Positions 55,948-63,561 of a stretch of DNA of 64,000 nucleotides are shown one piece after another (positions within the stretch are counted from its first letter, which is position 1; each line of letters begins with the position of its first letter). The stretch spans positions 1,504,001-1,568,000 of the forward strand of contig CAVOVB010000001.1 of the NCBI GenBank assembly GCA_963699755.1, in the 5' to 3' direction. The translations under genes and the position numbers were made by a program. Source of the stretch: an uncultured delta proteobacterium. Its GTDB lineage: Bacteria > Myxococcota_A > Polyangia > Polyangiales > Houyiibacteriaceae. The notes beneath the pieces were generated by a model. It was given only the letters and a program-made list of their open reading frames with translations. It ran no database searches and was not told the DNA's origin.

Positions 55948-56292
55948 CGCACGCTTCGCGCCGCCGCCCGTGCCGCCGGCTTAGAGCCCGATCGCGCATC
56001 GCAGGTCAAGCCATACGACTTCCGGCACAGCGTCGCGACGGAGCTCACGGAACGTTCAGGGAACCTTCTCGGTGTCGGCTACCTGCTCGGGCACCGCCAC
56101 GCGACCACCACCAACCAGTACGTTCATGCGCGTCGCCGCGCGGCCGAGGCAGTTCTTTTGGGACAGAATTCGGGACAGATTGAAAGTAGTTTCGAGGTGC
56201 CCACAATCGGCGATCGAGCTAACCCCCCGACATCACTTCAGTGCGAGGGACAGGACTCGAACCTGCACGCCCTAAGGACACTGGAACCTAAA
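55948..56292 (+). pseudogene. 3' remnant of a tyrosine integrase from an older tandem IME
   Basis: KPYDFRHSVATELTERSGNLLGVGYLLGHRHATTTNQYVH is identical to the intact integrase. Confidence 0.9.
56242..56292 (-). repeat. att site: duplicated 3' half of tRNA-Leu up to the anticodon loop
   Basis: 51-bp identity with 63454-63504; diverges right after ...gaacctaaa. Confidence 0.95.
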
Positions 56293-56377
56293 CGTAGGCC
56301 AGGCCCCCCACTTCCCGCGAATTTATTGGGGAAAGATGCGTCAGCAGACGTCCTGAGAGGTAGTGAAAAGACGCATT

Positions 56378-56390
56378 CGGGACAGGATGT
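56378..56390 (-). other. Candidate oriT nic site ACATCCTG/TCCCG
   Basis: Fits the MOB_P YATCCTG/Y consensus; about 270 bp upstream of mobC. Confidence 0.55.
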
Positions 56391-56657
56391 CCCAGATACA
56401 GGCGTCGTTGTGACGATGTCTGATGTTCGTGCGTGCGCCAGGGCGCTCGTCCAACGTGTCGCCGAAGGTGGGGAGATCCCGATGGCGTCATTGCGCGATC
56501 TTGCCGAGCTCGCGCTGCGTTCGGAGTTGGTTGCCGTCAGCCAACAGCTACTCGACGGGCCGCCCGAGTTTGCGCTCAGGCGGGCGATGGAGCTTGCGGG
56601 TTTGGTCTTGGCGGTAGTTGCTACCGATGAGCACGCGGAAGAAAAGGAGGCGGCCAA

Positions 56658-57005
56658 GTGAAGCGAAACGAGGCGAGGAAGCTGAAGTCCTGCATGATCT
56701 CGTTTCGGGTCGATGAGGACTACCTCAGTCGGCTCGATGCTCTGGCGCAGCAAACCAGCTATTCGCGCGCAGAGGTGCTTCGTCGATGCCTTGTCGGGGC
56801 TCCGCTCAAGAGCACCGTCGATGCACAGGCGCTCACCAAGGTTGCACGGGTGCACGCCGACCTCAACCGCATCGGTGGTCTTCTCAAGCTCGCGATTCGA
56901 GAGGGCGTGTCTGACCCGTCCAGCCACAACAGGCTGAACCTCGAGCTCATCGACTCCATCATCCAAGTCCGTCGGGCGGTGGAGCGTTTGGCAGGGCGTC
57001 GGTGA
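56658..57005 (+). CDS. mobC: Relaxosome accessory RHH protein
   Basis: ISFRVDEDY...AEVLRR, DLNRIGGLLKL; GTGA overlap with the relaxase gene. Confidence 0.88.
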   Translation: MKRNEARKLKSCMISFRVDEDYLSRLDALAQQTSYSRAEVLRRCLVGAPLKSTVDAQALTKVARVHADLNRIGGLLKLAIREGVSDPSSHNRLNLELIDSIIQVRRAVERLAGRR

Positions 57006-58240
57006 TCGTCCGGCACCAACGTGCATCAGCGAGCAACAGGGGCTTTCGTCAGCTCGCCCGCTACATTCAGGGTCGAAGCGACAAGCCGCGAACGACCTGG
57101 TTCCTGGCAGCAAATCTGCCTGGAGTGACCGGGCCCCGCAACCTCGAGCTCGCCTGCCGACTCGTCGAGGCCGTGCACGCGCAGAACACCCGCGCGGGGA
57201 GAAAACGTACCTATCATCTCGTCGTCTCGCTTCACCCGGAAGACCGAAGCCTCGACAGGAACGAGTTCAGGCGTGTTGTGGAAAACCTCGTGGAGACTTT
57301 GGGGTTTTCCGGTCATCAGTACATCGCCGCGCGTCACAACGACAAAGACCATGAGCACGTTCATGTAGCCATCCACAAGATCCACCCGGAGACCTTTCGG
57401 ATTCACTCGCCGGCGTGGAGCCACCAGAAGCTCTTCACCGTGAGCCGTGCGCTCGAACTAGAGCTCGGACTCACGCCGCTTCGGCCGAGAGTGCGTGATC
57501 GTGAGAAGGTCCCGCAGAGGGCGGCGGACCACGAAGCTCACCACGGGGTCGACAGCTTCGCTCGCTGGGCCCGGAAGGAGCTTGGTCCCGCACTTCGAGC
57601 CGTGCAGGTCCGGAGCTGGGACGATGTTCACGACGTCTGCGCCACTCTTGGCGTCGTGCTTCGGCCACATGGCAACGGCCTCGTCTTCGAGGATGTCGAG
57701 CAAGGCGTGCGCGTCAAGGCGTCGTTCGTGGGCCGCGCGCTCAGCAAGCCGCGCCTGTGCCAACGGTTCGGAGCCTTCCACCGAGCGCCCGCGCATCAGC
57801 TGGAAGCTGCAAGAACTGCGACCCGGCGATACTCCCCCGCCCCTCCCATCGCGCCGCAGGGCCTGTGGAAGGAATACGAGCAGAGCCTGATCCAAGCTCG
57901 TACGCAGCGCCAAGACGCATGGGATAGCTACCGGCATGCTGCCGCGCGCGAGCGCCAGGAGCTCAAGCAGAAGTATCGCCGTCAGCGGAACGTCATCAAC
58001 GCCTTACCCGTGTCAGCCCGCGATCGAGGCCAGCTTGTGCGACAACTCGCGCTTCGGCAGACCATGGAAACTCGAGCTCTGAGGCGAAAACTCGCGATCC
58101 AACGGAAAGCCATCCAGAAGACCTGGCACCCTGGCACGTGGCGCCATTTCGTCACCAGTCGCGCCGCGCAGCGCGACGCCCGCGCGATTCGACTTCGAGA
58201 GCGGGAACGCGGCGGTTCCGAGCAAGAACGGGAGTTGTGA
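57002..58240 (+). CDS. MOB_P (TraI/MobA-type) relaxase
   Basis: LARYI catalytic Tyr, YHLVVSLHPED, HNDKDHEHVHVAI HUH motif. Confidence 0.92.
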   Translation: MIVRHQRASASNRGFRQLARYIQGRSDKPRTTWFLAANLPGVTGPRNLELACRLVEAVHAQNTRAGRKRTYHLVVSLHPEDRSLDRNEFRRVVENLVETLGFSGHQYIAARHNDKDHEHVHVAIHKIHPETFRIHSPAWSHQKLFTVSRALELELGLTPLRPRVRDREKVPQRAADHEAHHGVDSFARWARKELGPALRAVQVRSWDDVHDVCATLGVVLRPHGNGLVFEDVEQGVRVKASFVGRALSKPRLCQRFGAFHRAPAHQLEAARTATRRYSPAPPIAPQGLWKEYEQSLIQARTQRQDAWDSYRHAAARERQELKQKYRRQRNVINALPVSARDRGQLVRQLALRQTMETRALRRKLAIQRKAIQKTWHPGTWRHFVTSRAAQRDARAIRLRERERGGSEQEREL

Positions 58241-61648: not shown

Positions 61649-61950
61649 ACCTCTCTGCGCCAGAGACGACCGAACGTCGAAGTCGTCAAATAGCCCTTAC
61701 GAGCACCCGCATGATGCCTACCGAGCCCCTGCGCGAATAAGCCGAAGGCGTTGAGCGCGGCATGCGGGGACTGAGACATCTTCGATGTCTTACAATCCCA
61801 CATCTTGCCCGGTACCCAGCATGGTCCGAACTGACCAAGACTGGCGGAATCTGTCACAGGCTGACCTTTTTTGGCGCGTTCTGAATCCTTTTGGAGTCTT
61901 CTGCGCTGTCTTGGATTGAAAGGGAGCCATTTCGCGTCAATCGATTCCAC

Positions 61951-62010
61951 GTCTAGTCAAAGTTGGTCAACCTTGGTCAGTTTGTGACAGTAGAGGACAG
62001 AATGTGACTG
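61951..62010 (+). promoter_or_regulatory. Six helically phased 10-bp repeats upstream of xis
   Basis: gtctagtcaa/agttggtcaa/ccttggtcag/tttgtgacag/tagaggacag/aatgtgactg. Confidence 0.55.
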
Positions 62011-62116
62011 CCAGCGCCAAGCTCACCGCGGCGCTTCTTGTCGCTCGATGGCGTGCTCGCTTTCCAAGCATTTTCTGCTCGCGCAACTTTTCGGGGGACA
62101 AAACCGATAACCATGT

Positions 62117-62491
62117 ATGGGGGACACGCCCGACTCATATCAACCGCACGCGAGACCTTCTGATCAAGAAGCCCGAAGAACACCGGCTCTCGATTCGCCC
62201 CTGCTGACAAGAAATGAGGCGGCGGTATATTGTCGAATCTCTCTTCGGACATTCGATCGGCAAGTTGCTGCGAAAGTTCCTCGAGTGCGAATCGGTTGCC
62301 GTTGCTTGTATGACAGGAAAGATATCGATCGATGGCTGGAAAGACACAAGGTTGGAAACTCCACAAGAATCCGCGAACTGGAATCTATCAGGTGCGGTTC
62401 CGCGTCGGCGGGCAGCGTTACCATCGATCCACTCGCAAGGCGGATCGCGCAGAGGCTCAGAGCGCGGCTGCCCGACTCGTTCGACGGGTGA
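62117..62491 (+). CDS. Excisionase-like HTH protein
   Basis: LLTRNEAAVYCRISLRTFDR...VRIG...YDRKDIDRWL. Confidence 0.8.
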   Translation: MGDTPDSYQPHARPSDQEARRTPALDSPLLTRNEAAVYCRISLRTFDRQVAAKVPRVRIGCRCLYDRKDIDRWLERHKVGNSTRIRELESIRCGSASAGSVTIDPLARRIAQRLRARLPDSFDG

Positions 62492-63561
62492 CCGAGGGCG
62501 ATGACCCCGATCGTGCGGCTCCTGACGTGCCGCTACCAGAGCTCGTCGGGAGTTGGCTCGCGGAGGTCAGGTCTGAGGTCTCTCCGGAGACGCTGCGCAC
62601 ATGGGAGCTCTACGCGGGAGCGCATTTCATTCCGCACTTCGAGACGTCCGATCGACTCTGTTCCGAGGCTTGCCTGCGGGACTACATGCGCAAGCGGCTC
62701 CAAGAGGTGAAAGCACGGACGGTTCAGAAAGAGCTCTCTTCCCTTCGACGTCTGCTCACTTGGATGGCGGAGCGGGGGCTTGTACAGGAAGCCCCCGCCT
62801 TTCCAAAGCTCCCGCGGCGCGCAACCGGGACCGCCCACCCGAGTGGCCGGCGGAAACGAATTGACCTCTCCCCGAAAGAGATGGATGCGATCGTCTGCGC
62901 GCTTCCCGCGCGCACCCGCGACGGACAGCCTCTCAGGGCGTATTTCGAGGTCATGCGAGAGACCGGGCTTCGCCCAGGGACCCTCCAACGCCTTCACGCT
63001 CCAGACGATTACCGACCGGGCTCCCAGTTCCTGCGGATTCGGGCCGAGGCGGACAAGGCCAGGTATGCCCGCGAGTTGCCGCTATCCGATCGCGCACGCG
63101 AAGTGCTCGACGAGGTGTGCCCCGTCGAAGGAATCTTCTTCCCGAAGTTCGCTTGGCGTTACCCGCTTCGCACTGCAGCCCTTGCAGCCGGCTTGGAGGC
63201 CGACCGCGCATCGAACATCAAGCCCTACGACTTTCGACACAGCGTCGCCACTGAGCTCACCGAGCGCTCAGGCAATCTACTTGGCGTCGGCTACCTGCTC
63301 GGACACCGTCACGCGACGACCACCAACCAGTACGTTCACGCGCGTCGAAGTGCGGCCGAGGCAGTCCTTTTGGGACAACATCTGGGACAAATCGACGGTG
63401 AGCGGGAAGGACACTGGAACACCGCCGCCGCTAACCCCCCGCAATCACTTCAGTGCGAGGGACAGGACTCGAACCTGCACGCCCTAAGGACACTGGAACC
63501 TAAATCCAGCGCGTCTGCCAATTCCGCCACCCTCGCTTGTGGTGTGATTTCGAATGGTTAG
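62332..63561 (+). CDS. Tyrosine integrase; C-terminus reads through tRNA-Leu antisense
   Basis: ETGLRPG (R), DKA (K), YDFRH, LLGH, NQY catalytic set. Confidence 0.92.
   Translation: MAGKTQGWKLHKNPRTGIYQVRFRVGGQRYHRSTRKADRAEAQSAAARLVRRVTEGDDPDRAAPDVPLPELVGSWLAEVRSEVSPETLRTWELYAGAHFIPHFETSDRLCSEACLRDYMRKRLQEVKARTVQKELSSLRRLLTWMAERGLVQEAPAFPKLPRRATGTAHPSGRRKRIDLSPKEMDAIVCALPARTRDGQPLRAYFEVMRETGLRPGTLQRLHAPDDYRPGSQFLRIRAEADKARYARELPLSDRAREVLDEVCPVEGIFFPKFAWRYPLRTAALAAGLEADRASNIKPYDFRHSVATELTERSGNLLGVGYLLGHRHATTTNQYVHARRSAAEAVLLGQHLGQIDGEREGHWNTAAANPPQSLQCEGQDSNLHALRTLEPKSSASANSATLACGVISNG
63454..63536 (-). tRNA. tRNA-Leu(TAG)
   Basis: GCGAGGG acceptor stem, TGGCAGACGCG D arm, CTGGA-TTTAGGT-TCCAG anticodon arm, long variable arm, GGTTCGAGTCC; CCA not encoded. 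Confidence 0.97.

Follow-up and report, generated by a model that had tools for sequence, protein, structure and literature searches.

Excision is predicted to lengthen the integrase of a Polyangiales mobilizable element and to couple its mobC and relaxase genes to it

Attachment (att) sites lying inside a gene have been described for several mobile elements. In myxophage Mx8, attP lies within the integrase gene int, the 3' end of which is replaced on integration (PMC6070905, PMC4383910, PMC11610982); Mx9 is said to resemble Mx8, and a 2003 title cited in PMC11610982 states that a C-terminal segment of the Mx8 integrase (Int) is dispensable for excision. In archaeal integrases of the SSV1 type, att is located inside int at a tRNA gene, and integration interrupts the gene (PMC5861418). 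In the ssrA islands of Dehalococcoides, which are likely integrative mobilizable elements (IMEs), the 3' end of the DsiB integrase gene overlaps attL, and the authors suggested that full function of the integrase requires the circle or a tandem island in front of it (PMC3146451). In mycobacteriophage BPs, integration swaps the C-terminus of a repressor whose gene spans attP, and a degradation tag is involved (PMC4557955). In Tn916, the genes for DNA processing and for conjugation lack a promoter in the integrated state and are transcribed from Porf7 once the element has circularised (PMC11658703). Here we describe a 64,000-nucleotide stretch of DNA (the window; G000:C1:1504001-1568000, where G000 is the window's genome, with a contamination figure of 9%) that carries an IME inserted at tRNA-Leu(TAG). 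We consider it probable that excision lengthens the Int of this element and couples its mobC and relaxase genes to it.

The window element shares with Mx8 a myxobacterial tyrosine integrase, an att site in the 3' part of int and an exchanged C-terminus, whereas Mx8 is a phage without a relaxase. DsiB is likewise found in likely IMEs with att inside the integrase gene, but it is a serine recombinase acting at the transfer-messenger RNA gene, and the available text describes neither a conserved tail domain nor a coupling to mobC and relaxase. Tn916 already provides a case in which excision allows read-through into relaxase genes, and the layout in the window would fit this pattern; Tn916, however, is a self-transmissible integrative and conjugative element under transcription/antitermination control, for which neither a change of Int nor a stop/start overlap spanning att is described in the part available. 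The BPs switch concerns a repressor rather than an integrase and works through a degradation tag. The first-pass annotation, made from the sequence alone, had noted that Mx8 and SSV1 carry attP inside int, which agrees with the literature (PMC6070905, PMC5861418); an SSV-type split integrase was rejected for the window, as all catalytic motifs of its Int precede att. In our view the window element probably works like Mx8 plus Tn916: the principles are known, and the combination and the tail domain described below appear to be new. The literature search, which left most subscription journals outside its scope, found no title or abstract opening describing the arrangement or the tail domain.

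The element and the two forms of its integrase

The excisable unit comprises 7,212 bp (56293-63504; Table 1), which corrects the bounds 56242-63561 proposed at first. It contains an integrase, att repeats at both ends, a MOBP relaxase and a site resembling an origin of transfer (oriT). No mating-pore genes were found among the open reading frames (ORFs) of the 7.2 kb, and PF03135 (VirB4 region) and PF02534 (coupling protein) gave no match in G000. We classify the element as a MOBP-type IME of a Polyangiales (Myxococcota) lineage. Its ends are identical over 61 bp (56232-56292 and 63444-63504) with no identity further out, and a 29-nt att probe gave 2 matches against 0 expected. Because both ends stop being identical directly after the anticodon loop, we infer that the crossover takes place in the loop heptamer, 56286-56292.

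The int gene has no stop codon before att. It encodes 391 amino acids (aa) up to the att end, after which antisense reading of the tRNA gene's 5' half adds 18 aa. Beyond the far att copy the same frame continues for 122 aa, and its TGA (56659-56661) lies within a GTGA whose GTG, at 56658, starts mobC. Both observations had been made in the first-pass annotation and agree with the ORF and att coordinates. The circle, which it had proposed to build in silico, measures 7,212 bp and joins the 391 codons and the 122-codon tail in one frame, yielding a 513-aa Int whose stop overlaps mobC. The catalytic residues (209-334) all precede att at codon 391 and hence the joint, and the catalytic domain is thus intact in both states, one of the properties by which we assign the arrangement to the Mx8 type. 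This likeness does not extend to sequence. Membership of the window Int in the Mx8 Int sequence family was rejected (in pairwise tests Mx8 Int gave E 0.043 and 0.18 against P0007, a member of the window's Int family, with a weak N-terminal match only), and a phage search with a 515-aa form did not return Mx8. Nor did the tail prove homologous to that of Mx8: the hhalign probability was 0.2, and a broader profile placed decoy ORFs ahead of the Mx8 tail.

Of 54 same-genus genomes, 33 contain the tail, at four classes of target: Leu-TAG antisense, Leu-TAG sense, Leu-AAG antisense and Lys-CTT antisense. In every class the frame of the catalytic motifs at the full tRNA gene is the frame of the tail at the far att, although the classes use different frames of the loop; the integrated-state tails are 18, 3, 0 and 7 aa long, respectively, and representative Ints of the classes are 35-63% identical. 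The frame was open from att through the last helix in 100 of 110 junctions (35/42, 12/12, 32/34 and 21/22 in the same order). This set was drawn from loci L001-L233, leaving out the Mx8 locus and junctions with <330 nt downstream and merging identical ones, and the calls were made by alignment, since motif-based calling undercounted (92/110). Stops within the first 39 codons occurred at 4 of the 110 junctions in the tail frame, compared with 93 and 91 in the other two frames. The pooled pairwise ratio of nonsynonymous to synonymous substitution (dN/dS) was 0.12-0.26 for the core of the tail and 0.41-0.86 for its linker, and the core is under purifying selection. The first-pass annotation had called for such a check of the 122-aa extension, and had held that stops or frameshifts between att and about 56415 in relatives would make the distal ORF a separate gene; these are mostly absent, although three mobC-bearing junctions do have a frameshift in the linker. 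The junction counts show consistency rather than independent trials, because the junctions share ancestry and were found via tail queries; the four target classes come closest to independent events.

Long forms also follow from other sequences. Among nine elements that each lie complete on a single locus, six yield an unbroken Int of 513-522 aa when joined; of the remaining three, two have a broken int and one a broken tail. A natural long form is encoded at L047, with an intact Int of 515 aa, and 11 of 12 longer database matches carry PF00589, including the 513-aa P0007, which appears frameshifted mid-sequence. These natural long Ints may represent tandem junctions rather than circles. The long-form junctions L047 and L137 have no mobC behind them; L047 has an oriT but lacks mob genes in its vicinity, and its mobilisation may occur in trans.

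Layout of mobC, relaxase and oriT, and competing explanations

Behind the tail, mobC and the relaxase gene overlap in turn (Table 1). The relaxase is about 33% identical to TraI of IncP-1, and the element resembles the IncP-1 oriT-traJ-traI system in its relaxase family, its ribbon-helix-helix (RHH) partner and its nic-region motif (for RHH partners see PMC9282650). There are 71 junctions with mobC within 800 nt, of which 68 are open and 65 are direct overlaps (55 GTGA, 8 ATGA, 1 CTGA and 1 TTGA). At L213 a single frame of 249 aa comprises both the tail and MobC, and the circle would encode Int-tail-MobC, although this is a single contig and may be an error.

The predicted oriT-like site, which the first-pass annotation had not noted, lies upstream of xis, about 520 bp before the int start and 5 kb from mobC. 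It is conserved and matches the oriT region of the IncP-1 plasmid pAKD1 at 12 of 13 nt around nic and in a 9-nt upstream box. Relatives diverge sharply just after the nic-like motif (61811) into a few types, as would be expected from recombination at nic. None of 30 oriT-like sites is accompanied by a divergent mobC, and in 26 of them xis-int lies on the nic side. In IncP-1, traJ stands beside oriT, and the same holds for a sister family (relaxase 37% identical), in which mobC is beside oriT in 5/5 cases and has a tail upstream in 0/5. In the window element's family, by contrast, mobC stands behind the Int tail, with a tail upstream in 65/68 cases and oriT upstream in 0/68. The family thus appears to depart from the usual oriT-mobC layout in the way that an excision-coupled operon would need. 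The tails of the sister family have no mobC behind them, which means that the isoform swap does not depend on mobilisation.

The dual switch proposed in the first-pass annotation fares differently in its two parts. The switch of Int isoform is strongly supported by the open frames, whereas the xis-int-mobC-relaxase operon is supported indirectly, by the position of mobC behind the tail instead of beside oriT. That the tail is translated as part of Int is highly probable in our judgment; that the mob genes are expressed mainly by read-through on the circle is quite probable; and that the tail favours integration is the option to which we lean only slightly. The conserved layout probably represents a working switch, which may be pictured as follows. 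Short Int together with Xis would excise the element. The circle would then produce long Int, and the four-helix domain that this form carries at the end of a flexible linker would probably favour integration (attP x attB). Transcription from the conserved oriT-xis region, in which the promoter candidate upstream of xis was recognised in an alignment of 24 nic-to-int regions among those listed, would cross attP only on the circle and proceed through xis, long int, mobC and relaxase. MobC and relaxase would be made by translational coupling, only after excision, and the relaxase would nick only the free circle, sparing the chromosomal oriT, while the mating pore and the coupling protein would have to come from a helper. 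Provided that nicking affects the + strand, as in IncP-1, xis-int would lead on entry into the recipient. There, long Int would integrate the element, an event that would remove the tail and detach mob again. Tandem insertion would recreate the joined state within the chromosome.

Several observations weigh against this scheme, and most of them favour an alternative that accepts the tail swap as real and useful for recombination but gives mobC and relaxase an att-proximal promoter of their own in the linker, possibly switched on by a helper element. The overlap would then be compact packing, or would tie mob to a core protein of 81 aa produced in the integrated state. Indeed, the core starts at Met42 (56416). 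Among 86 anchored tails, 64 have ATG or GTG at this position, 10 have CTG or CTC, and 12 are mis-anchored or other; a separate 81-aa gene from this point, plus mob, is possible. However, in six sense-class tails the stretch between four codons ahead of the core start and three codons past it contains no ATG, GTG or TTG, and Met42 seems to behave partly like a hydrophobic residue. The synonymous sites of linker codons 11-30 are constrained at the DNA level, which fits either Int arm sites or a promoter; against the latter, the constraint coincides with a palindrome found in 71 of 92 tails, a half-site of which recurs on the other att arm. In addition, the 92 tails contain no sigma70-like site, and in the window's class tail codons 41-120 show free variation at fourfold sites, which together argue against a promoter just before mobC. 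A weak sigma70-like match (9/12) does lie upstream of the left att at 56180-56207, where 3 were found against 1.3 expected. The strong Shine-Dalgarno sequence of mobC itself also points to independent expression, as do the persistence of tails without mobC (29 of 35 junctions with no mobC behind are still open) and the linker frameshifts at 3 of the 71 mobC-bearing junctions (L166, L187 and L210). In L166 the relaxase has been lost, and the sequences of L187 and L210 end before the relaxase could be judged. The alternative is further opposed by the finding that mobC is never beside oriT in the window element's family, and we regard it as unlikely, though less so than the two that follow.

The open frame might instead be a by-product of conserved att-arm DNA and high GC content, with the tail being an independent small gene. 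Protein-level selection in the linker is indeed weak, as the dN/dS intervals there reach 1 in 2 of 5 sets. We nevertheless find this explanation hardly credible given the skew of stops between the frames, the matching of the frame in four target classes and the distant full-length integrases that end in the tail domain (see below). It is also possible, though very unlikely, that the long form is a regulatory dead end, in which the tail destabilises or inhibits Int and the element is held excised while the coupled mob genes act. The BPs repressor, with a tag on its long form (PMC4557955), is a precedent, and most chromosomal long-form junctions carry damaged ints. Among eight such junctions with enough upstream DNA, int is intact in 2 (1 of these with an open tail), compared with 16 of 25 at full tRNA genes, both counts coming from a crude regular expression that also misses some intact genes. 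The damage may stem from selection or simply from decay, which befalls older tandem elements in any case, as is known from IME tandem accretion (PMC5704250). Moreover, the extreme C-terminal residues of the tail are not conserved, unlike a degradation tag, and its conserved part is a folded 70-aa core.

Direct traces of the circle were also sought. No att-to-att joint was found in four sequence sets over 55800-63800, a result that is uninformative, as all four consist of contigs, which break at the 61-bp repeat. An RNA-library contig of a relative (94% alike) spans att, tail and mobC, although it may originate from DNA.

The tail domain and its wider occurrence

The structure model of the tail shows a disordered linker followed by four confident helices. 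Fold searches with two tail models gave best Z scores of 5.5 and 6.1 and no Foldseek match at E<=0.001. Searches of Pfam, PHROGs, NCBIfam, PDB sequences and the ESM Atlas yielded no usable family match, and the tail was not found in viral_contigs. A profile search with the tail returned 146 representatives. Three of the distant matches are as long as an integrase (473-555 aa), and each is a tyrosine integrase with the tail domain at its end. One of them, the Mx8-like Int P0102, is 33% identical to Mx8 Int over 383 aa. Among distant matches with enough upstream sequence, 21 of 26 begin with a peptide resembling a translated tRNA gene, compared with 2-7 in ten shuffles.

A sample of 401 genomes from the phylum, in each of which only 13 candidates were scored, contained the domain in at least 17; six of these belong to other families of the same order. 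Most of nine loci from this sample have an in-frame tRNA piece upstream (clearly Asp, Gly and Arg), and one has none. At L249:1725-2747 (G459:C11), the tail stands behind a complete tRNA-Arg(ACG), and overlaps at its stop an ORF of 340 aa whose matches to Rep_1 and REP_ORF2-G2P are weak and below the cut-off. This ORF contains motifs that we take to be typical of rolling-circle initiators. An integrase was not found in the 20 kb beyond the L249 tail.

We tentatively suggest, without giving it the better chance, that Polyangiales tyrosine integrases have in the four-helix tail a portable, hitherto undescribed module for directionality, parked behind the far att and attached only on the circle. 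Such a module might have been reused across distant Int subfamilies and many tRNA genes, its stop serving as a socket that couples the next circle-only gene, mobC-relaxase in the window and the Rep-like gene at L249. If so, one recombination would set the directionality of Int and switch on transfer or replication without a repressor.

Tandem array, neighbouring features and significance

Table 1. Features of the window element and its surroundings (positions in the window)
Feature	Position	Strand	Remarks
3' remnant of a second, related int (older tandem element)	55952-56240	+	cut off upstream; adjoins broken IS110-family element
Far att copy, tRNA-Leu positions 33-84	56241-56292	-	sequence match
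Int tail frame, 122 aa + stop	56293-56661	+	41-aa flexible linker, four-helix core
Short palindrome in linker, candidate arm-type Int site	56380-56392	.	related direct repeats 63372-63389, 56160-56177
Conserved four-helix core of tail	56416-56661	+	no known family or fold
Shine-Dalgarno-like AAGGAGG for mobC	56644-56650	+	inside last tail codons
mobC (RHH, NikA/TraJ-like)	56658-57005	+	PF21983, PF01402; weak TraJ NF010451 below cut-off; start overlaps tail stop
MOBP relaxase, 412 aa	57002-58240	+	start overlaps mobC stop; NF041893 302.9 bits (cut-off 250)
~95-bp dispersed repeat copy, directly behind relaxase	58285-58380 (approximate ends)	+	
Cargo: CAAX-protease-like gene and zinc-ribbon membrane protein gene	58539-60127	-	
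Remnant of another tail's end	60329-60442	+	fused to ~95-bp repeat copy (about 60240-60330)
Cargo: ParE-type toxin and addiction-module antitoxin genes	60479-61011	-	PF05016, PF09720
oriT-like site: conserved box, inverted repeat (61767-61799), nic-like motif (61799-61811)	61733-61811	+	predicted
Conserved motif just upstream of xis, promoter candidate	62080-62111	+	function inferred
xis-like helix-turn-helix gene	62117-62491	+	PF12728; TIGR01764 weak; overlaps int start
Tyrosine integrase, integrated (short) form, 409 aa	62332-63561	+	PF00589; att ends after codon 391 at 63504
tRNA-Leu(TAG), target gene	63453-63536	-	tRNA gene call
Second family member's integrase, 3' part	63484-64000	-	tRNA 5' half read in sense; runs past window

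The int remnant to the left of the element is in frame with att and the tail and is 84% identical to the element's int over 232 nt. The presence of a related int 3' end ahead of the left att indicates a tandem array, in which the left junction already resembles attP. No further att copy was found left of 56241 in the window and the 24 kb upstream of its start. Frameshifted mobC/relaxase remnants at 35019-35269 and 43975-44882 show that the decayed array reaches at least 21 kb to the left of the element. On the right, a second family member of 21.3 kb has entered the same tRNA gene from the opposite side, duplicating the 5' half, and its far att is followed by a homologous tail, GTGA, mobC and relaxase. 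One tRNA gene therefore serves two related elements, which duplicate its 3' and 5' halves, respectively, and both cross in the anticodon loop. G000 contains eight tail matches, two copies of which are identical. The named records with close relatives are metagenome-assembled genomes labelled mostly Polyangiales, Myxococcales or Deltaproteobacteria, on which we base the assignment to a Polyangiales lineage.

The ~95-bp repeat is present in the window at 58285-58380, 60240-60330 and 54448-54540 and has 43 matches in G000. In several elements it directly follows the relaxase, and in mobile regions it is also located between cargo genes. Many contigs depart from the reference near 60328, at the end of one copy, and the repeat looks like a recombination site for cargo shuffling. 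A broken IS110-family transposase gene (window 54803-55662) lies beside a copy of the repeat and the truncated int remnant. As to the target genes, a tRNA-Leu with anticodon AAG is found at G000:C5:295746-295830 and in the relatives L060, L129, L135, L136, L138, L140 and L149, and the GAG isoacceptor is absent from the tRNA list of G000. Leucine tRNAs with A34 are rare in bacteria and would need inosine editing.

The link between ints and tails is invisible in databases because pipelines annotate the ints in their short form and the tails as separate hypothetical proteins. If our reading is true, a five-gene backbone would time excision, nicking and re-integration without a regulator, the state of the DNA itself being the switch for both a protein isoform and an operon. 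The family would also offer many natural versions of the question raised by Mx8, namely what an att-distal tail does to a tyrosine integrase, and a defined 80-aa domain might serve as a built-in control of directionality.

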